Shown here in pieces: positions 1 to 25,278 of a stretch of 25,278 bases of DNA. Location of the stretch: the IMG/VR virus record IMGVR_UViG_3300012953_000206, positions 1 through 25,278 of that record; one strand, given 5' to 3'. Position numbers and translations under genes: made by a program. Source of the DNA: a virus. Taxonomy: Duplodnaviria; Caudoviricetes. The notes under the pieces were generated by a model. That model ran no database searches. It saw nothing but the letters and a program-made list of their open reading frames with translations, and was not told where the DNA came from. Each line of letters starts with the position of its first letter. Position 1 is the first letter of the stretch.

Positions 1-1
1 T

Positions 2-2692
2 ATATGGGATCAGGATCTTGGAGCTAAGTCTATTGGCGAACCAACTGCTGTAGAAAAAGTTGTAGGTATTGGTGTTGGTAATTATAAGAGACTTACTATT
101 GACTACAATTTAGTTGATGGTGTAAAAAATGGTCCATTCTTAATTTTAGATGTAGAAGATTATACAGTACAAAGTATTGAATCAGAAGATTCTTTATACG
201 TATTCTTAGATGGTGTTCTACAAAGAAAAGGATACTCATATACTATAGCTGGTCCAAATATCTTCTTCAATATTCCTATTACAAAGGAAATGAAGATTGA
301 TATGAGATATCTCTATGGAAGAGATGTTGGTCAGGTTCTTAATGTTTATGATTTTGCACCAGACACATATTTTTCACAAGGTTCATTCTCTTTTGATTCT
401 ACTGAATTAACTCCTTTCTTAAAGTATGATTGGATGGGTGATGCTGTTGGATCTGCAATTCAAGTTTGGCAACAAAGAGCAAATGGGACATATAATGTTA
501 TTGGTGAAATTACCAATCCAGTAGTTACTGGAAATACTATAGTGTTTGATCTTAAGGGTCAGAATGGTGCTATTGAAAGTGGTTTAGATTATACTTTTGT
601 ACCAAAAAAATACTATGATAGAACATTTGTAATTACAGATGCTAATATTTCTAATGCAACTCTATCATATGTAAAAGATGCGGATGGAAGGAAAATTCTT
701 AAGACTGATGATGGTATCTGGTCTGGAAGTAACTATGGAATAACATATAAAAAACCATTTGTATCTTTATCAAATGGAGATAGTATTCGTGTAGATGGTG
801 AAGAAGGATTCCGTAGTATTAAAAAATTACCCACAGAAGCTACTAGTAAAGATGGAAGACCTAATGAACAAACATCTGATGACATTTTTGGTACAGTCTC
901 AGTTGAGTCTTATACTGGAATTACTAGAGGTGAAGGTCTTTCTGTAATTGCTACTATTGAATCTGGAAGTATTACAAAGTTAACTTGGAACCAACGTAGT
1001 TATGATCCAATTACACAACCAACTGCATACCAATACTTTACACCTCCTGTACTTAAGTTTGAAACATTAGATGGTAATGGTGGTGGTGCAAGAGCAAATG
1101 TTCTTGTAAGTAAAGGTCAAGTAATAAGTGTTGATTTAATTGATGGTGGTTCTGGATATACTAAAGTTCCAAAAATTATTGTAACAAGAAGATTTGATGT
1201 TCTCTCAGACAGAAATATTGGTGTATCACTAATTAATGTTGCTATCAGACCTTACATAGATGTTGCTCAAAGTGGTTCAGTTATAACAACTATTTCAGTT
1301 CTTGGTAACAGACTTGTTGATGCATTCTCTTTCTCTTCTGTTAACCTACAGAGTCCAGCAGATGTCTCTCGTAAGATAACTGCAGAAATTCAAACTGATA
1401 AGAAAAATATTGTAGATGGTACATCTGGATTTGATATGCCAGTTGGTATTGATCAACCTGGTGGTGCTCAAATTGTATTCATTGAACCACCACCTGCTGT
1501 TGATATTAATGGTGAAGGTGGTGTATTAAGACTTCAAGGTTCTGCAACTGTTGTTTCTGCAGAGCTTCAAGATATTGTTTCTCTTAACTCTATTTCTACT
1601 GTAAGTAAGGCAATTACAAGCACCGTACAGAATGTCATTCCTAATGATGCTCTATCTAACATCAACTTCTTTGAGAATGCTGCATATCTTGATATTGACT
1701 TTAATATTGGTGATAGCATTGCTTATATTCCTGATACATTTAAGTTTGATGCAATGGGTCTACTTCTCATTGGTGATGAAGTAGTAAGATACCATAGAAA
1801 ACTTTCTGATAGATTTACTAACATCCTTAGAGGTCTCAGGGGAACTACTGAGAAAGATTGGACTGCTGGTACTTTCTTGAGACAAATTCCAGAACTTATA
1901 TCTGTTGCTCCTGTGGGTGTTGTTCAGATACAGTCTGAAAGTGATGTTAAGATGGTCAGTGCATCTGTATCTGCAGGTGGATTTGAAAGGAAAGTACAAA
2001 GACAGATCTCTCCTGCTTCTGCAATGTCTGTAACTAAAGATGCTACAGAAGTTGTTATTACACCTCCACCAGGCGGTGTTGTTGATGGATATGCTGAGGA
2101 ACTATTCTTAACAGATCCAATTCCCGTTAGAGCTGGTAACACAACTGGTGGACATGATGGTGAAGTTGATCTTATTGAAATCAATGATGGTTATCATGTT
2201 GGTAAGAGAAATGCAACTGAAGTTCTTATCGTTAACTCTATTTTTGGAAGAACTGCAGAATACATTGGACAATATACTAAAACAAACGCTGGTCATACCA
2301 TTAGTCATTTTGAAGGTATTTTTGATGATGGTGCATGTTCTGTATCTGGTTTATCACTTGCGGAACTTGATTTGTACTTTGGATCTATTACTATAAAAGA
2401 CTTCAGTGAAAGAGGAGATTCTAGTTATACACTAGCTGGTGATAAATTTATTATGATGCCCCCATCAATCCAAAATCCAGTTGCAATTAGTTCTTCCGCA
2501 GGAACAATTGGTGGAAATATTGTTGTTCAAGATACAACTTACTTCCCTGATCAGGGATATGTATTTACTAGTGGTGGAACTGTTATTCAGTATACTGGAA
2601 AAACAGCAACATCATTTACTGGATGTACTTTAACTAGAGGTACAAACTCAATTTCTAACGGTCATGAGTTGGTTCCGTTTACAATTGATTAA
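2..2692 (+). CDS. gp7: Baseplate wedge initiator gp7-like protein, C-terminal part (5'-truncated by window)
   Basis: The frame is open from base 2 (IWDQDLGAKSIGEPTAVEK...YVFLDGVLQRKGYSYTI...EMKID), so the ATG at 290 is internal. It has the VFLDGVLQ..Y motif, a GGSGY..P module and two F(P)..G....Y..K....F....RG modules seen in cyanophage baseplate proteins, and lies directly upstream of gp8. Confidence 0.72.
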   Translation: MWDQDLGAKSIGEPTAVEKVVGIGVGNYKRLTIDYNLVDGVKNGPFLILDVEDYTVQSIESEDSLYVFLDGVLQRKGYSYTIAGPNIFFNIPITKEMKIDMRYLYGRDVGQVLNVYDFAPDTYFSQGSFSFDSTELTPFLKYDWMGDAVGSAIQVWQQRANGTYNVIGEITNPVVTGNTIVFDLKGQNGAIESGLDYTFVPKKYYDRTFVITDANISNATLSYVKDADGRKILKTDDGIWSGSNYGITYKKPFVSLSNGDSIRVDGEEGFRSIKKLPTEATSKDGRPNEQTSDDIFGTVSVESYTGITRGEGLSVIATIESGSITKLTWNQRSYDPITQPTAYQYFTPPVLKFETLDGNGGGARANVLVSKGQVISVDLIDGGSGYTKVPKIIVTRRFDVLSDRNIGVSLINVAIRPYIDVAQSGSVITTISVLGNRLVDAFSFSSVNLQSPADVSRKITAEIQTDKKNIVDGTSGFDMPVGIDQPGGAQIVFIEPPPAVDINGEGGVLRLQGSATVVSAELQDIVSLNSISTVSKAITSTVQNVIPNDALSNINFFENAAYLDIDFNIGDSIAYIPDTFKFDAMGLLLIGDEVVRYHRKLSDRFTNILRGLRGTTEKDWTAGTFLRQIPELISVAPVGVVQIQSESDVKMVSASVSAGGFERKVQRQISPASAMSVTKDATEVVITPPPGGVVDGYAEELFLTDPIPVRAGNTTGGHDGEVDLIEINDGYHVGKRNATEVLIVNSIFGRTAEYIGQYTKTNAGHTISHFEGIFDDGACSVSGLSLAELDLYFGSITIKDFSERGDSSYTLAGDKFIMMPPSIQNPVAISSSAGTIGGNIVVQDTTYFPDQGYVFTSGGTVIQYTGKTATSFTGCTLTRGTNSISNGHELVPFTID

Positions 2693-18321: not shown

Positions 18322-21300
18322 ATGAGTTTTCATATTAATTCCGATAAAGAAAAAATTAGGGGCGTCAACCCTAAAATTATTGGTGATAATGAGACTACCA
18401 TAAGAGTTGGCAGTGGAGCTGACGAACGAGAAATAATGCGTTTGGAGTTAGATACTCAAAGCGGGTTACCTCGTGTTGGTATTAACAGAACTGGTCAGAG
18501 AGTTAATAATATCAACGTCACTGCAGGTGGTTCTGGGTATACATTAGCTCCTACTGTTGTTGTTGATGCTCCTCCTAGTGGAGGAACTCAAGCTCTTGCT
18601 TCCGCGTTTATTTTTAATGGTGCTGTTGTTTCTGTAGCAGTAAATGATCCTGGTAATGGATACACGACTGCTCCAAACGTTGCATTTACTGGTGGTAATG
18701 GAGCTGGTGCTGCAGCAACTTCAGTCCTTGATACTGTTGATTTTGAACTTGATATTAATGGTGCTATCAGAACCTCTACATCTATTATTTCTGATACTGC
18801 TAGAATTTTAAACTTAGATATTGAGAACTTTATCACTCCAGATCTAAATTTAAGAGCACCAAATCTTAAGACATATATGAATGGAACTGGTACGCCATGG
18901 GCTGCCAATGTTATTGTAGCTAAAGGTGCTTATAGATACGCACAAGGAAATGTATACGAAGCAACCAACACAGGAACATCTGGAACAAGTGCTCCTATTC
19001 ATAAAGATGGAATCGTACTTAATGGTGAGGTAAACTTTAAACACATTGGTTTCAGAGTTGACGATAATAATGATTTCAAGTATCTTGAAACTGGTAACGC
19101 TGGTGTATTTCCCCGTTCTATCACACCCATACTAGGTGATAGATCTGACAAAATTGCAACTACAGAATACGTACTTAACCTAGCAACAAATGACGTTGGT
19201 GGTCGTGTTTATGTGTCCGCACAAATTGGTTCTGACTTAAATGATGGTCGTTCTGCTGTAAACCCAGTCCGTACTATCAAGAAAGCAGCACAGATTGCAT
19301 GGTCAACACCTGGTGTTAAAGAAACACTTATTGTATCTGGTGGAGATTATGTAGAAGATAACCCAATTTCATTACCTCCAGACTGTTCAGTTGTTGGTGA
19401 CAACCTTCGTTTGGTTATTGTCAGACCAGCTAACCTTGGAAAACATATTTTCAAATTTGGTGATAAAAACTATGTTACTGGAGTAACATATAGAGATAAA
19501 ATTGATTCCAATGGCGACTCAATTGGAACTTGGGATTATGCTATGGTCTTTGACGATAAGCAAAGAATCGTTATTGATAATGAAGCAAACGGAGATGCTA
19601 GTGTAGAGTTTCCAATTGGACATCAAATTTTTGGACCAGAAAGATTTCGTATTGGATTCCAAAATAACACAGGATTGGCATTATTACAATCTAATGTTGA
19701 AGCTGTAGGTTTAAACACTGGTGCTAGAGCAAATATTGTTGATGTTGCCTTTACTACCACCACAGGTGCCAGTGCATATGTCACTGGTACTATTGATGTA
19801 CAGTTAAAATCTGGTTCCTTAATTGAAGGTGATCAGTACAGTTATATTACATCTGCATCTACTGGTGGTGCATCATCATTAACTATTTCAGGTACATCTG
19901 GTAATAACAAACTAAGGTTTACCAATGATCCATCATCTGAAATTCCAGTAAATTCTGTTGTATTTTTAGATGATACTGATAATTCTAGTTTTACATCAGG
20001 TTATTATCAAGTAACTAGTATTGATACTTCAAACTCACCAACTTATTGGGATGTTGAGTTTATTCCAATCTTAGGTGCTCCTTCTTGGGATACTACACTA
20101 ACAGAAACCATTGCAATGAGTTCTGCTACAACAGTATCCAATACAATAGATACTGTCAATCTAAAATCAATTAGATCTGAGGGTGAAGTTGTTTCTTATG
20201 ATCAAGATGTAACATCAACTCTACCTATTTCTAGAGTTGATTTCTCTTTACAAGGAGATGCTAGTATTGCAACAGGTGGTTTCCAACAAGCTCAATTTGG
20301 AAGTGCAGAAGATATTGGTGGTATTGTTTTCTATACAAGTGCTCTTGTAGGTAGAACAAATTTCCATGAATTTAAAGAAGGACAAGAAATTATTATTAGT
20401 GGAATGCCAACTAATAGTCCAGATTTGTCTTTCCTTAATGGTAAACAAAGAATTTATAAAGTTTTAGAAGATGCTGATGGTCGTGCAAGAAGATTTGTAA
20501 TTCCTAAAAAATTCCCATCATTAACAACATCAAACTTTAATCCAGGAGAATTTGCAACAGTACAGTCATATTCTAAAGTTGTTACATTATCACTATTAAA
20601 CTCACCAAACAAGTTTCCTCTTGCTACACCTGTTGAAAGAAGGTATCAAGATGCTTGTCAGTTAATTAGAAATAATAGAGATTATATTGCAGAGGAAGTA
20701 GTTGGTAGAATTAATAAGGAATTCTCAAAAGATTATTTTGCTGTATATAATATTAATACCGTCAGTAATACTTTTGACATTTATCTTGGTGCTACAGATC
20801 ATGTAAACACATATGTTAGTGGTGGTACAGTAACATTTGGCGGTAGTTCGTATACAATTAGTAATTTTGTATATGACAATGTAGGTGGTGTTGCTACAGT
20901 TACAACAACTAATCCTGCTGTTAGTGCATTATCTGAAGATGATATTGTTAAATTAGCAGATATTCTTATTTCTTGTAGTGCAGGTCAAAAAGTATATCCA
21001 GCATACAGTGCTCCAACTTCTGGAATCAATACTGGTGATGATGGTGATACACAATGTAAGCAAGATATTATTCACTTCTTAAATGCTCTAGTAAGAGATC
21101 TTGAGTTTGGAACTAACCATAATATTATTGAAGGTTCTAAAAAATATATTATTGATGGCAAGATCACTTATATTGATGATGAAATTATTCAGAATGTGCG
21201 TGCTATTGAATATGCCAGAGAATTAGCAATTTATGCAATGTGTAACTGGAGGATTAAAGATAGAACTCCTACTGATCCTCTATACGTTACAAAATATGCT

Positions 21301-24300
21301 ACATCTACAAGATATATTGATGATACAATTATATCAGCAACAGCAGGAAATCCACGTTGTGATGATGTAAGAGCTGCTATTGATACTTTATCGTTCTTGT
21401 GGGCTGATGTTATCACTAATAATGCTAATGGAACTTATCTTGATGCTGCATATTTAATTGCAAGAAACGCTGATGTAATTGCAGATCAAGCACTTATTGA
21501 TACAGAAGCTGCATATCCAACACTTGATCTTTCTGATTTACATCAGAGAAAATGTCGTAGAGATATTAAGATTGTATTAGAAGGATTATTGAGAGATTTA
21601 GTTCTTGGTGGAAACCATGGTGTTGTTTCTACTGCAGAGGCATACTTTAGCGGAACTGTTCTTTCTGGTATCTCAGAAGGACAAAGAGCAGAAACACTTT
21701 ATGCTTTTGAAAGAGTAAAACTATATTCCATCCAGGCAATGCGTAACTGGTCTGATGGAAACGTTTTACTAACAACTCCAACAGGATCTACGTATGTTCC
21801 TGCTACAGGAGCATTGACAGTAGTTATTCCAGATCCAGCAGTAGCACCTGTAGCAAACTCAGACAGGATTGCTTTCTCTGAGGGAGCGTTAACATTTACT
21901 TGTGCATATGGTGGTGGTGGTACTGATGCAGGTCCTTATAGAACTGACATTGCATTTGGTAAGAGTTTCTTAATCACTAACGTAGCTTCTAGTGGTGGTA
22001 ACACTACACTTTCACTTAATGTTGGTGTTGCAGGAAGCAATACTGACACACATACATTTGATAGTGCTCTTGCTAATGGCACTAAAATTATCTATGGTCC
22101 TATTACATTAACATCTCCAATTCCTAGGTATGAAGATTGGAGTATCTTAACTGAAAGTGGTGCTGCTCCTATTGGCATATTTACTCCATCAAATGTTACT
22201 TATGATCCAGCAAATGGTGATCTTACATTTACTACTGCAACTGCACATAATTTAACAAACTCCAATACAATTCGTTTCCAACCAGAATCATTGGTGTTTA
22301 CTTGTGATATGGATAATGATGCTACAGAGCATAGATATCCACAAAATGGTCAACCTGCATTTGGTAATAACCTTGTAATTACTGGAACAACATCCAATAC
22401 AGTTACAGTTAATGTTGGTGCTGTTGGTAGTAATGTTCAATTTACACCTACTGCAGGAAGTTATGATCCTGCAACAGGAATAATGACACTAGAGATTGGT
22501 GCTCATACTTTAGATGTTGGAGAAGGTGTTGTTATTGCTGATAATTCATTATCATTCAAGTGTTTAATGGATGGTAATACTGCAACTAAGACATATCCAA
22601 GACCTTCTATTGATAGAGTTAGTGGAAGATCAATTTCAATTGCAGGAAAAACAGCAACTACAATTTCAGTTAATGTTGGTAAATCTCCTGCAGATAGAAC
22701 ATTCCAAGCAGGTTCTAACACAGCATATGATCCTGTATCTGGACTTTTAATTCTTGATGTAGGTACTCAACATGGTATTGGCGTAGGAAGAAATATTGTA
22801 TTAGAAGATGGTGCTGTAACGTTTACATGTAATCTTGATGGTAATGCAACTCAACATAGTTATCCTCGTTCAACCGACCCTGCATCTGGAACATCTCTAG
22901 AGGTTACTGATGTTACAACTTCATCACATACAGTAAGCAATGCACCATACGATGCAGCTACTGGTATTATAACATTCACATTATCATCTCATGGATGGGC
23001 AACTGGTGATTATATCAAGATTGATGATGATGCATTAACATATAAATGTGAACTTGATGGTAATTCAACTGATCATGCTTATCCTCGTGCTGGATTTGAT
23101 TATGCAAGTAATCGTTGGTTACCGATTACAAAGATAGATGACAATACATTCTCAGTTGATGTTGGTGTTTCTTCTTCTGCTGATCAATATACACATACAT
23201 TTGTAAGTGCTGCAGCTAACGGAATTAAGAGGCAAGCTGGATTAATAGTTGTTAATGTTGGTACTACTCCTCTTGTTAATTTCACTCCTAGTGGAGTAAC
23301 ATACAATACTACAAGTGGTGATTTAGTTATTCAATTGAATGCAAATCATGGACTTACTGTTGGAACAAGCATTAAACTTGCTACAGATTCATTAACATTT
23401 GAATGTCCTGCTGCTGTTGGAACTCATACATTTGTAAGTGGAACTACTGGAGCAATTCAAGCAAGTAATGGTAATACCAATACATTTACTGCTATAACAG
23501 GTACAACTTATAATCCTACAACTGGAGTTTTAATATTAAAATTCTCTGGTGCTCATGGTTTATCAACAAGTAATAAAGTCACGATTGCTAACGGTGGAGT
23601 TACATTTACTTGTGATGCTGATAATCATGCAACAAACCACCCATATCCTAGAGCATCTGATCCTGTATCAGGACAAGCACTTGACATTGATGCTGTAACT
23701 AGTGATACAATTGAAGTTAATGTTGGTATAGCATCTTCAAATAGTCAGAGTACATATCCTCGTGCAACAGGTGCTAATACATCTAGTGGTGCTGACTATG
23801 CATATGACACTGCTCTACCAATTACTAATGCAGATCAGGCAGCTGGTACAATTACAATTAATGTTAATGGTGGACAAGGTGCAATTAGTGTAGGATCTAC
23901 CCATACATTTGTATCTGCAACAGCTGGAGCAGTAATTTCTGGTGGTAATTACGCACATACATTTGTAAGTGGTCTTGCAAATGGTATTAAATTTACACCA
24001 CAATCTGCACATACATTCGTATCTGCAACAACTAATGCAATTTCACATACTCCAAATTCACCTCACGCATTTATAAGAGCAAATACAGATGCTGTAAGTG
24101 CTTATTCTTCTAGTGCTGGATCAATTTGTGCAAATGTAGAATCTAGTATTAACACAGCATTAGAACTGTTTGCAGATATTCTAGACGGAACAACCCTTCC
24201 TGGATCTACAACCCAAACGTTTGGAACTTTATATGATACTGCTCCTATCATTACATATCCAGATAGTTACATCACTGATTTCTATAATCAGAGAATGGCA

Positions 24301-25278
24301 GTTCGTGGTATTTACGATGATTATCCTATCATTGAAGCATCTCCATATACACAGAACGCATCTGTTATTTCCTTTAGAGGGGGTGGTGGTGCTCTTGTTG
24401 ATGGATCTAAAGTTAAGCAACCTAACTGCCCATTTGCTGGATTAGAACCAGATGGAACAGCATCCTTCCCTAATCAGGGTAAATCCATGGTTGCTGCAGC
24501 GTTCACGATTGTGTCGTTTGGTGGTACTGGATATAGAATTATAGAAGATGGATATGTACAGTTAGTTTCTGTATTTGTTATTTTCTGTCAAGACGGTGTT
24601 CTTGCTGAATCAGGTGGTTATGCATCTATTACTAACTCTGCTACCAACTTTGGTACATATGCTTTAAGGGGTAAGGGATATAGAGAAGAATGTTATGAGT
24701 TTGACCAAGGAACAGTTAATGTTGTATCTCAGACTCCAACTGGAAGAACCACCATGACAATTGGTGGTATTGGTAGGGAACCACTTGAGCACTACATTGT
24801 TAAATTGGACGGATATACAAATGCAGATCCAACCAAAGAATTCTTTATTGATAGTGTAAGTGGTGTTACTGTAGGACCACCTTTCTCAGCGACTCTTATA
24901 ATTGATGATGGTGTGGGTAATGGATTAAGTCTGATTGAAACCGCAACTGGTAATACTATTTCTGGACTAACAGCATTACAAGCTGCGTTAACACCAGCTG
25001 CTGCATCTAACGCAACAATCAAGTTACATAGACCATCAATTGTTAATTCCTCATCACACACTTGGGAATTTGCTGGTTCTGGTAACAATTATCTTGCATT
25101 ACCTGAAAACGGTGGTACTAAGGTAGAAGCAAATGAGCAAGTATCTCAAGATTATGGTCGTGTTTATGTTTCAGGTACTGACGAACTTGGAGACTTCAAG
25201 GTTGGTACATTTGCTAGAATTGAGAACAGAACTGGTAACATTACCTTTACTGGTACGGTTACAATTTCTGAAGTTGAA
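18322..25278 (+). CDS. Very large tail fibre/spike-like structural protein, >=2319 aa, 3'-truncated by window (absent from ORF track)
   Basis: Hand translation from ATG 18322 (MSFHINSDKEKIRGVNPK...) found no stop before the window end (...GNITFTGTVTISEVE). It contains KIATTEYV, a beta-helix-like start (VYVSAQIGSDLNDGRSAVNPVRTIKKAA...GDYVEDNPISLPPDCSVVGDNLR), SPYTQNA...GYVQLVSVFVIFC...GGYASITNSATNFG, and HTWEFAGSG...GRVYVSGTDELGDFKVG. Confidence 0.92.
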   Translation, partial: MSFHINSDKEKIRGVNPKIIGDNETTIRVGSGADEREIMRLELDTQSGLPRVGINRTGQRVNNINVTAGGSGYTLAPTVVVDAPPSGGTQALASAFIFNGAVVSVAVNDPGNGYTTAPNVAFTGGNGAGAAATSVLDTVDFELDINGAIRTSTSIISDTARILNLDIENFITPDLNLRAPNLKTYMNGTGTPWAANVIVAKGAYRYAQGNVYEATNTGTSGTSAPIHKDGIVLNGEVNFKHIGFRVDDNNDFKYLETGNAGVFPRSITPILGDRSDKIATTEYVLNLATNDVGGRVYVSAQIGSDLNDGRSAVNPVRTIKKAAQIAWSTPGVKETLIVSGGDYVEDNPISLPPDCSVVGDNLRLVIVRPANLGKHIFKFGDKNYVTGVTYRDKIDSNGDSIGTWDYAMVFDDKQRIVIDNEANGDASVEFPIGHQIFGPERFRIGFQNNTGLALLQSNVEAVGLNTGARANIVDVAFTTTTGASAYVTGTIDVQLKSGSLIEGDQYSYITSASTGGASSLTISGTSGNNKLRFTNDPSSEIPVNSVVFLDDTDNSSFTSGYYQVTSIDTSNSPTYWDVEFIPILGAPSWDTTLTETIAMSSATTVSNTIDTVNLKSIRSEGEVVSYDQDVTSTLPISRVDFSLQGDASIATGGFQQAQFGSAEDIGGIVFYTSALVGRTNFHEFKEGQEIIISGMPTNSPDLSFLNGKQRIYKVLEDADGRARRFVIPKKFPSLTTSNFNPGEFATVQSYSKVVTLSLLNSPNKFPLATPVERRYQDACQLIRNNRDYIAEEVVGRINKEFSKDYFAVYNINTVSNTFDIYLGATDHVNTYVSGGTVTFGGSSYTISNFVYDNVGGVATVTTTNPAVSALSEDDIVKLADILISCSAGQKVYPAYSAPTSGINTGDDGDTQCKQDIIHFLNALVRDLEFGTNHNIIEGSKKYIIDGKITYIDDEIIQNVRAIEYARELAIYAMCNWRIKDRTPTDPLYVTKYATSTRYIDDTIISATAGNPRCDDVRAAIDTLSFLWADVITNNANGTYLDAAYLIARNADVIADQALIDTEAAYPTLDLSDLHQRKCRRDIKIVLEGLLRDLVLGGNHGVVSTAEAYFSGTVLSGISEGQRAETLYAFERVKLYSIQAMRNWSDGNVLLTTPTGSTYVPATGALTVVIPDPAVAPVANSDRIAFSEGALTFTCAYGGGGTDAGPYRTDIAFGKSFLITNVASSGGNTTLSLNVGVAGSNTDTHTFDSALANGTKIIYGPITLTSPIPRYEDWSILTESGAAPIGIFTPSNVTYDPANGDLTFTTATAHNLTNSNTIRFQPESLVFTCDMDNDATEHRYPQNGQPAFGNNLVITGTTSNTVTVNVGAVGSNVQFTPTAGSYDPATGIMTLEIGAHTLDVGEGVVIADNSLSFKCLMDGNTATKTYPRPSIDRVSGRSISIAGKTATTISVNVGKSPADRTFQAGSNTAYDPVSGLLILDVGTQHGIGVGRNIVLEDGAVTFTCNLDGNATQHSYPRSTDPASGTSLEVTDVTTSSHTVSNAPYDAATGIITFTLSSHGWATGDYIKIDDDALTYKCELDGNSTDHAYPRAGFDYASNRWLPITKIDDNTFSVDVGVSSSADQYTHTFVSAAANGIKRQAGLIVVNVGTTPLVNFTPSGVTYNTTSGDLVIQLNANHGLTVGTSIKLATDSLTFECPAAVGTHTFVSGTTGAIQASNGNTNTFTAITGTTYNPTTGVLILKFSGAHGLSTSNKVTIANGGVTFTCDADNHATNHPYPRASDPVSGQALDIDAVTSDTIEVNVGIASSNSQSTYPRATGANTSSGADYAYDTALPITNADQAAGTITINVNGGQGAISVGSTHTFVSATAGAVISGGNYAHTFVSGLANGIKFTPQSAHTFVSATTNAISHTPNSPHAFIRANTDAVSAYSSSAGSICANVESSINTALELFADILDGTTLPGSTTQTFGTLYDTAPIITYPDSYITDFYNQRMAVRGIYDDYPIIEASPYTQNASVISFRGGGGALVDGSKVKQPNCPFAGLEPDGTASFPNQGKSMVAAAFTIVSFGGTGYRIIEDGYVQLVSVFVIFCQDGVLAESGGYASITNSATNFGTYALRGKGYREECYEFDQGTVNVVSQTPTGRTTMTIGGIGREPLEHYIVKLDGYTNADPTKEFFIDSVSGVTVGPPFSATLIIDDGVGNGLSLIETATGNTISGLTALQAALTPAAASNATIKLHRPSIVNSSSHTWEFAGSGNNYLALPENGGTKVEANEQVSQDYGRVYVSGTDELGDFKVGTFARIENRTGNITFTGTVTISEVE
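21769..24102 (+). repeat. Seven copies of a ~105-aa beta module (YDP.TG / H.L..G / F.C..D / YPR / VNVG / HTFVS), mostly nested
   Basis: Unit starts are near 21769, 22180, 22441, 22702, 22927, 23281 and 23422. The HTF(V/D)S-type His codons are at 22051, 23194, 23425, 23902, 23956, 24010 and 24064. Confidence 0.88.
23902..24102 (+). repeat. Tandem 54-nt (18-aa) period repeat, 4 copies of HTFVS(A/G)...(A/G)(I/V)
   Basis: catacatttgtatctgcaaca (23902), catacatttgtaagtggt (23956), catacattcgtatctgcaaca (24010) and cacgcatttataagagca (24064) are spaced exactly 54 nt apart. Confidence 0.88.

Follow-up and report, generated by a model that had tools for sequence, protein, structure and literature searches.

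The window analysed here, a stretch of 25,278 nucleotides from a virus of the Caudoviricetes related to marine cyanophages (IMG/VR record IMGVR_UViG_3300012953_000206), covers the baseplate region of a T4-like phage. A long open reading frame (ORF) for a protein of the tail-fibre type lies there downstream of other structural genes, which include a gp8-like wedge gene and a VrlC-like DUF4815 gene. Within this ORF, one small module of about 105 (roughly 100) amino acids (aa) occurs in six copies that are inserted into one another, hereafter the nest (Table 1). We read these copies as six self-nested barrels that would form a forked stalk running out and back, likely a host-surface-binding cluster and likely changing by recombination of whole blocks, and give this reading a probability of roughly 80%. 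The observation itself is confirmed and the architecture is supported.

A complete module consists of five pieces, A to E. The YDP.TG anchors of A lie at 21793, 22201, 22462, 22726, 22948, 23302, and 23509, the F.C cysteines of B at 21901, 22303, 22561, 22828, 23047, 23404, and 23611, and the histidines of E at 22051, 23194, 23425, 23902, 23956, 24010, and 24064, which gives seven A, seven B, and seven E in the nest together with one copy ahead of it (unit 0). The pieces follow each other as ABCDE in unit 0 and as ABCD ABCD ABC ABCDE D AB EABCD CD EEEE in the nest, corresponding to the tree 1>2>3>{4, 5>6}, which is five levels deep and branches at unit 3, the host of two inserts. Scored against profiles built from the intact modules of other loci, with the window excluded, all seven A and all seven B reached 20–49 bits and six of the seven E 21–43 bits, compared with shuffle maxima (99th percentile) of 2–8 bits. 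The last E is divergent (HAFIRA, not HTFVSA) and scored 8.5 bits, just above the shuffled background. Under a grammar in which a module, in normal or E-first order, may be inserted at any piece boundary of a second one, the string was parsed at a cost of 0, which was equalled by 41 of 2000 shuffles keeping in-order fragments intact; the C of unit 0 was entered into the parsed string by hand, from a regular-expression match.

The nest had first been described from the letters of the window and their translations. All coordinates given in that original prediction, including those of the resumed D at 23251 and the resumed YPR at 23755, were correct when re-checked with motifs and profiles, and its periods of 87 aa for the openers and 18 aa for the closers agreed with our measurements. 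Its branching at unit 3 and depth of five hold in the parse tree, and the four E segments that it had matched to the unclosed units 5, 3, 2, and 1 are recovered both by the zero-cost parse and by a last-in-first-out order in predicted structures. Two of its points needed refinement. Both copies that it had called intact are complete, unit 4 as well as the one at 21769–22092, the latter being atypical and outside the nest. Unit 6, which it had placed at 23422–23733, is indeed present inside unit 5, as a circular permutant whose E comes first (HTFVSG at 23425).

Table 1. Features of the nest and of its host ORF in the window.
Feature	Position	Strand	Evidence or remark
Host ORF, tail-fibre-type structural protein	18322..25278	+	truncated by window end
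Eighth module copy, circularly permuted D-E-A-B-C, in first helical region	20749..21030	+	
Helical host region, N-terminal part; its loop holds unit 0 and the nest	21433..21753	+	module-free orthologue L016 has a ~43-aa loop here
Unit 0, intact but atypical ABCDE, outside the nest	21769..22092	+	motif regular expression and profiles
Unit 1 opener (ABCD), depth 1	22174..22434	+	motifs; model range 1..644 matched by single barrels
Unit 2 opener (ABCD), depth 2, in D/E loop of unit 1	22435..22695	+	residue 91 contacts closer residue 622
Unit 3 opener (ABC), depth 3, branch point	22696..22920	+	residues 174–217 contact closer residues 596–608
Unit 4, intact, in C/D loop of unit 3, first tip	22921..23241	+	endosialidase-barrel alignment; not in closer interface
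Resumed D strand of unit 3	23242..23274	+	VNVG at 23251; strand 351–361 in model
Unit 5 opener (AB), depth 4, in D/E loop of unit 3	23275..23418	+	motifs
Unit 6, circularly permuted E-A-B-C-D, depth 5, in B/C loop of unit 5, second tip	23419..23733	+	
Unit 5 resumed: C (YPR at 23755), D (~23857), and predicted own closer E (23902)	23734..23943	+	
Predicted closer of unit 3, His at 23956	23950..24003	+	
Predicted closer of unit 2, His at 24010	24004..24057	+	
Predicted closer of unit 1, His at 24064, divergent	24058..24105	+	
Helical host region resumes after the nest	24121..24190	+	directly after the short loop in module-free orthologues

The nest is not an assembly artefact, because the stretch is identical in relative L001 (2373 of 2373 bases) and has the same layout in relative L002 at 87% identity. 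A simpler explanation for the same order of pieces would be ordinary tandem repeats, namely an ABCD array and a separate array of 18-aa E segments that expanded independently and match in number by chance. On paper, two separate duplications could yield ABCD-ABCD-E-E, and the 54-nucleotide spacing of the E segments resembles that of a short repeat. However, independent arrays do not give the C/D and B/C splits, and a parse of L002 that forbids nesting costs 13, compared with 1 when nesting is allowed. The orthologous site also speaks against independent arrays. Among 75 distinct sequences, it carries 0 (17 sequences), 1 (25), 2 (1), 3 (3), 4 (1), 5 (25), 7 (2), or 12 (1) modules. Counts of A, B, and E, which the original prediction had expected to co-vary 1:1 between openers and closers, were equal at 71 of the 75 sites by profile (29 of 33 among sites with at least two modules), and the four exceptions (L044, L076, L082, and L085) were balanced once divergent closers were counted by eye.

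Furthermore, losses at this site are single contiguous blocks. All 29 aligned four-unit blocks lack one stretch, 23317–23955, which comprises units 5 and 6 with the first closer, and both aligned two-unit blocks lack 22708–24009; since token pattern served to choose these rows, their balance reflects selection, whereas the position of the gap does not. Among 28 three-closer stacks, the last closer matches the window's last closer best in 25, and none starts with a match to the window's first. The similarity of openers tracks that of closers under last-in-first-out pairing (rho 0.38; 57 modules in 25 proteins), compared with −0.11 under first-in-first-out and 0.02 ± 0.07 under random pairing, and none of 300 permutations reached 0.38. 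The same test in 16 non-orthologous proteins gave 0.39 and −0.09, respectively, again with 0 of 300 permutations. Of 166 clusters, 80 had a clean stack parse, and the 25 proteins were taken from these, each representing a different string. The nesting grammar is general: inserts occur in the D/E (36), C/D (21), A/B (13), and B/C (4) loops of the 115 modules that make up these strings, 13 of the modules being permuted. Shuffling of single tokens, where each of the 56 parsed strings did better than all of its shuffles (of 76 strings, 20 were too short or too long to parse), was judged too easy as a null and was replaced by shuffling of fragments, whose mean was beaten by 59 of 66 strings, 36 of them at p up to 0.1; the strings are mutually related. 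The tandem-repeat explanation retains the deficit of E that profile counts give in long clusters; with predicted models also placing the closers inside the openers, it is largely refuted, and we consider it very improbable.

AlphaFold2 was run on the product of 22174–24105 with a 33-row alignment and gave a mean predicted local distance difference test score (pLDDT) of 84.9 and a predicted template modelling score of 0.61. The last three closers were modelled at pLDDT 88–94 and the first at ~72–78. Units 5 and 6 with their own closer, folded alone with 23 rows, reached 85.5. This division into two folds replaced a first alignment (A1), which was dropped since it had set fragments of units 5 and 6 on units 2–4; in alignment A2, units 5 and 6 were represented by two rows only, and L210, with one unknown residue, was excluded from alignment A4. 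Solved single barrels aligned to ranges 250..356 (unit 4) and 414..521 (unit 6) of the long model, as well as to two ranges that join distant pieces. One, 367..591, combines unit 5 with the first closer into one barrel. The other, 1..644, places unit 1 and the last closer in one barrel (6l2u_B, 81 of 103 residues, 3.4 Å, Z 6.9); being the outermost, this barrel has to wait a further 540 residues for its closing strand. The endosialidase barrel matching unit 4 spans 1..223 of the short model, across the inserted unit 6 (Z 7.4, 2.4 Å, 81 residues), which forms a separate barrel at 49..153.

Units 1–4 and the last three closers were also modelled as split chains. The score was 0.67, compared with 0.00 for the best of three controls; the mark applied is reached by 116 of 157 solved complexes and by 2 of 215 mismatched pairs. 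Contact agreement between runs was at least 98% and partner pLDDT at least 86. The best contacts joined the closer at 23956 to unit 3 and the closer at 24010 to unit 2, and equivalent residues were offered to the interface by units 1, 2, and 3 and none by the intact unit 4. The score supports complementation and the contact list supports its order, both being predictions. A sequence search of the PDB with the nest and with the module profile found no similar complex. The original prediction had proposed that the closers pair with units 5, 3, 2, and 1, and this is the order given by AlphaFold2 together with the split-chain model, with predicted pairs of 23902 with unit 5, 23956 with unit 3, 24010 with unit 2, and 24064 with unit 1. 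Each opener would then very probably be completed in cis by its own last-in-first-out closer strand. Completion in trans, in which a chain of an oligomeric fibre would lend its E strands to the openers of an adjacent chain by domain swapping, would agree with tail fibres usually being trimers, with the assembly of the split pieces as separate chains in the model, and with a description of the cyanobacterial Si3 domains as partly domain-swapped (PMC11515920, in its accessible text). Nevertheless, the single-chain model closes the barrels in cis with high confidence and its geometry requires no partner, so we regard completion in trans as improbable.

Structure comparison with the predicted models suggests what the barrel resembles. 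Among the matches listed, the best for the module were phage endosialidase barrels (Z 8.3–8.4, 2.1–2.2 Å, 81 residues), including that of phi92 for unit 4 (Z 8.3, 2.1 Å, 81 residues), followed by a chain of phage FCWL1 (Z 7.8, 2.7 Å, 81 residues), by the FCCH domain of E1 (Z 7.3–7.8, 2.4–2.5 Å, 75–76 residues, within the range of common arrangements), and lower down by flavin adenine dinucleotide-binding and riboflavin-synthase barrels. No HABAS/SBHM chain was among the 50 matches listed, which does not exclude the HABAS fold. A Foldseek search of the long model gave weak beta-rich matches only in the PDB and cyanophage proteins first in BFVD, and the ESM Atlas returned a viral FCCH cluster at 0.92 with 172 shared features. 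Among 91 intact modules, PF16190 was weakly matched in 10 (best E 0.0037) and PF12195 in 9 (best E 0.0043). The copies in the window gave no match to PF12195, and the best of them for PF16190 scored 15.9 bits, below the gathering score of 29.5. These results suggest that the module is distantly akin to endosialidase and FCCH barrels, while membership of either family by the Pfam cut-off fails. In the PDB, the module profile had weak, scattered matches only, of which the best, to iota-carbonic anhydrase (E 0.0026), was assembled from three sub-threshold stretches and taken as chance. Exactly one cysteine is present in 76 of the 91 modules, and the opener and the closer each keep one conserved histidine, a conservation that is partly due to selection on these anchors. 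The cysteine and histidines might form a metal site or a cross-link joining opener and closer.

The host ORF encodes 2319 aa inside the window, and its stop-to-stop frame has 3747 codons in L001. It matches PHROG 5342, a cyanomyophage 'tail fiber protein', with 3032 bits and is positioned after the baseplate genes. In the six named cyanophages opened, the syntenic gene is annotated as tail fiber or structural protein and has the same neighbours as in the window, while in two other named phages the match falls in a gp7-like giant gene. 'Tail fiber' is here an annotation name, and assembly into a virion fibre is putative. The nested stretch matched 327 phage records, all labelled Synechococcus phage, cyanophage, Prochlorococcus phage, or marine virus. 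A Pfam scan of the whole ORF and of the nest found no family, and a PDB sequence search with the nest found no relative. In cellular genomes, 2 loci (L243 and L244) of 145 candidate stretches carried the module, both as long module-rich ORFs in metagenome-assembled genomes that are probably phage contigs; the version in L244 is divergent.

Several observations were made on the parts of the protein around the nest. The regions that host the modules (20638–21753 and 24121–24190; L016, 7452–7961) are helical and look phycobiliprotein-like, with the uninterrupted copy in L016 matching PF00502 at E 0.0027 and 18.1 bits, under the cut-off of 22.2. They are themselves split by inserts, which would add one nesting level. 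The eighth module copy was found in the first of them, where its A to C pieces aligned to the module profile with a probability of 84% and E 7e-6 (hhalign) and its D and E pieces were read by eye; it has a weak match to E1_FCCH (E 0.014). A DUF1565-like start at 19204–19560 (E 0.0024, under the cut-off) seems, by eye, to pick up again from 24331 after ~1600 inserted residues, in which case a domain of the beta-helix type might be interrupted by a single very large insertion that makes up the entire middle of the protein. Beyond the part covered by the window, aa 2330–3747 of the L001 frame at 2061 contain repeated GLDADxLD-type motifs, which are known from tail fibres.

We next consider how such a structure might grow. 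The units of the window are only 25–41% alike over A-B, and a DNA repeat search of the window and of P-SSM4 gp7 found no recent near-identical duplicate. Conversely, the block of units 5 and 6 is 69–71% identical to blocks in the differently built proteins L091, L092, L167, and L168, and a whole four-unit nest lies at a second site, about the position of 20749–21030, in L071, L081–L084, and L086, instead of the eighth copy. We infer from this that the nest grew as entire blocks were brought in. Patch recombination is a means by which T4-like phages shuffle their fibre genes. A block would enter a loop through one crossover on either side, within the homologous pieces by which the loop is flanked in both the donor and the recipient module. 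The brackets would thereby stay balanced, and copies misaligned by one level would give a deeper nest; we lean towards this route, with some reserve. The resulting units 1-2-3 would form a stalk that forks into unit 4 and units 5-6 and is rooted in a loop of the helical region.

What the predicted stalk does is less certain. The barrels may bind sugars on the host surface with avidity, by analogy with the look-alike endosialidase barrel, because the tips carry nothing else, close relatives differ in copy number, and the barrel of K1F binds sialic acid. According to the accessible text of PMC13564897, the K1F endosialidase barrel contains a sialic-acid binding site and is a hotspot of host discrimination. 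We hold sugar binding as a tentative suggestion, and about as likely is that the same nested fold is an inert spacer or decoration that gives the fibre bulk, reach, or stiffness with no specific binding. On siphovirus tail tubes, FCCH-like accessory barrels point outward (PMC13576161, accessible part), copy numbers range from 0 to 12 at this site, and the conserved residues of the module are mostly of core type, all in line with a spacer. On the other hand, a spacer would lack a load to present, since the tips bear no other domain, the gain from branching is greater in surface than in length, and the best fold match is a sugar-binding barrel. The original prediction had taken the nest as a way to lengthen a phage appendage; a spacer fits no better than a variable binding cluster, because the tips are only barrels and 17 of the 75 orthologous sites are module-free.

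The following points weigh against our reading of six self-nested barrels in a changeable host-binding cluster. Recombination was not caught in the act by the repeat search, and the nest is dispensable where the 17 module-free orthologous sites occur. A clean stack parse was obtained in only 80 of the 166 clusters, and 7 of the 66 strings did not beat the fragment-shuffle mean. Counts of A and E were equal in only 38 of 76 distinct cluster strings (differing by at most one in 54; rho 0.98), the totals being 497 E and 587 A; the unequal cases inspected, a part of them only, were due to divergent closers missed by the profile. The rows of the folding alignments were chosen by token pattern, and the pairing was read from first-to-last alignment ranges and a contact list, not from coordinates. 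In the single-chain model, closure of unit 2 or unit 3 was not directly visible in any alignment range, and no pair of the closer at 24064 was among the 25 best split-chain contacts. The split chains are pieces of one protein, and their controls were without a same-family wrong partner. Finally, the likeness to endosialidase barrels amounts to 12–20% identity and Z 7–8, where common arrangements occur.

With five levels and six copies, the nest in the window is modest beside related loci. L145, L154, L158, L160, L110, and L125 encode giant structural proteins with 25–27 modules, and in two of them, L145 and L154, a single cluster comprises 25 A and 25 E (parse cost 4–5, compared with a shuffle mean of 15–16). 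At the window's own site, L076 carries 12 modules from 510 onward (aa ~1165–2460), with two more E-first permutants and a 12:12 balance by eye. In L044 (aa ~1160–1500), two nested E-first permuted modules (E E ABCD ABCD) stand ahead of unit 0, in a mirror image of the arrangement in the window. A metagenome scan found no further six-unit orthologue. More speculatively, and with considerable doubt, cyanomyophages might possess a recursive system for building proteins. Its unit would be a plug-in barrel that tolerates inserts in four loops and also occurs in permuted forms, recombination would swap balanced blocks of it between giant virion genes, and the host range of each phage would be tuned by the particular tree, branched and multivalent, of glycan-binding barrels that it displays. 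If true, this would be a route of diversification distinct from tandem repeats, tip swapping, and hypermutation.

Repeat proteins normally grow by tandem addition, whereas here one domain grows into trees by self-insertion. A single site provides a natural series of 0, 1, 3, 5, 7, and 12 modules among relatives, several of them in cultured phages; Sf-FP1 and S-RIM32 have the nest at this site, and Syn1 and Sf-CH11 are without it. Three questions thereby become open to experiment: in what way chains with deep nesting fold, by what means recombination preserves the balance of such genes, and whether host range is set by the giant, unexplained structural proteins of the abundant marine cyanomyophages. 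The nest is also a natural scaffold for the design of branched multivalent proteins. Linear domain annotation, which in Pfam returned nothing, misses proteins of this kind.

The closest known system is Si3 of the cyanobacterial RNA polymerase (beta', RpoC2), which is described in the accessible text of PMC13114784 as recursively self-inserted, with six levels in Prochlorococcus and bifurcating nodes, and in that of PMC11515920 as consisting of recursively inserted, partly swapped HABAS (sandwich-barrel hybrid) domains. The original prediction had considered the arrangement possibly undescribed. Recursive self-insertion is already published for Si3. No description of a phage virion protein with self-nested repeats came up in a literature search that did not extend to most subscription papers or to the supplement of PMC13114784, whose 48,551 insertion events could include such proteins; the word 'phage' is absent from the main text of PMC13114784. 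Other known systems share single traits with the nest. Like the predicted stalk, the T4 tail sheath protein gp18 is a phage structural chain that runs out and back through inserted domains, likened to a 'Russian doll' (PMC3004832, PMC6088184, as far as their accessible text goes), but its four domains are unlike each other and stand in a fixed, unbranched order, whereas the nested units here are homologous and self-nesting; the window matched no sheath family in Pfam or PHROGs. The phage endosialidase barrel (phi92, 4hiz 257–340; K1F, 424–508; PF12195), the best match of the module, also belongs to a host-binding phage protein, yet it is a single copy in an enzyme and its identity to the module is low. 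The FCCH domains of E1 and the FCCH-like domains of siphovirus tail tubes (PF16190) resemble the module as barrels and through weak Pfam matches under the cut-off. Those of tail tubes are single and terminally fused, with no nesting reported in the accessible part of PMC13576161, and that of PMC13612043 gives only a local FCCH likeness, in a tail tip.

Like Si3, the nest consists of a small domain inserted in copies of itself over several levels with bifurcating hosts, here according to predicted structures. Unlike Si3, which lies in the trigger loop of the RNA polymerase beta' subunit and for which 8–10 domains are described, the nest is hosted by a tail-fibre-type ORF in a phage baseplate cluster, its best fold matches among those listed are other barrels, its tree includes a permuted copy, its copy number varies among close relatives (0–12 at one site and ~25 in related proteins), and its blocks probably move between genes. 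The nest works like Si3 without being a member of it. The kind of architecture is already known from Si3, and what appears new here is recursive self-insertion in a virion-type protein.

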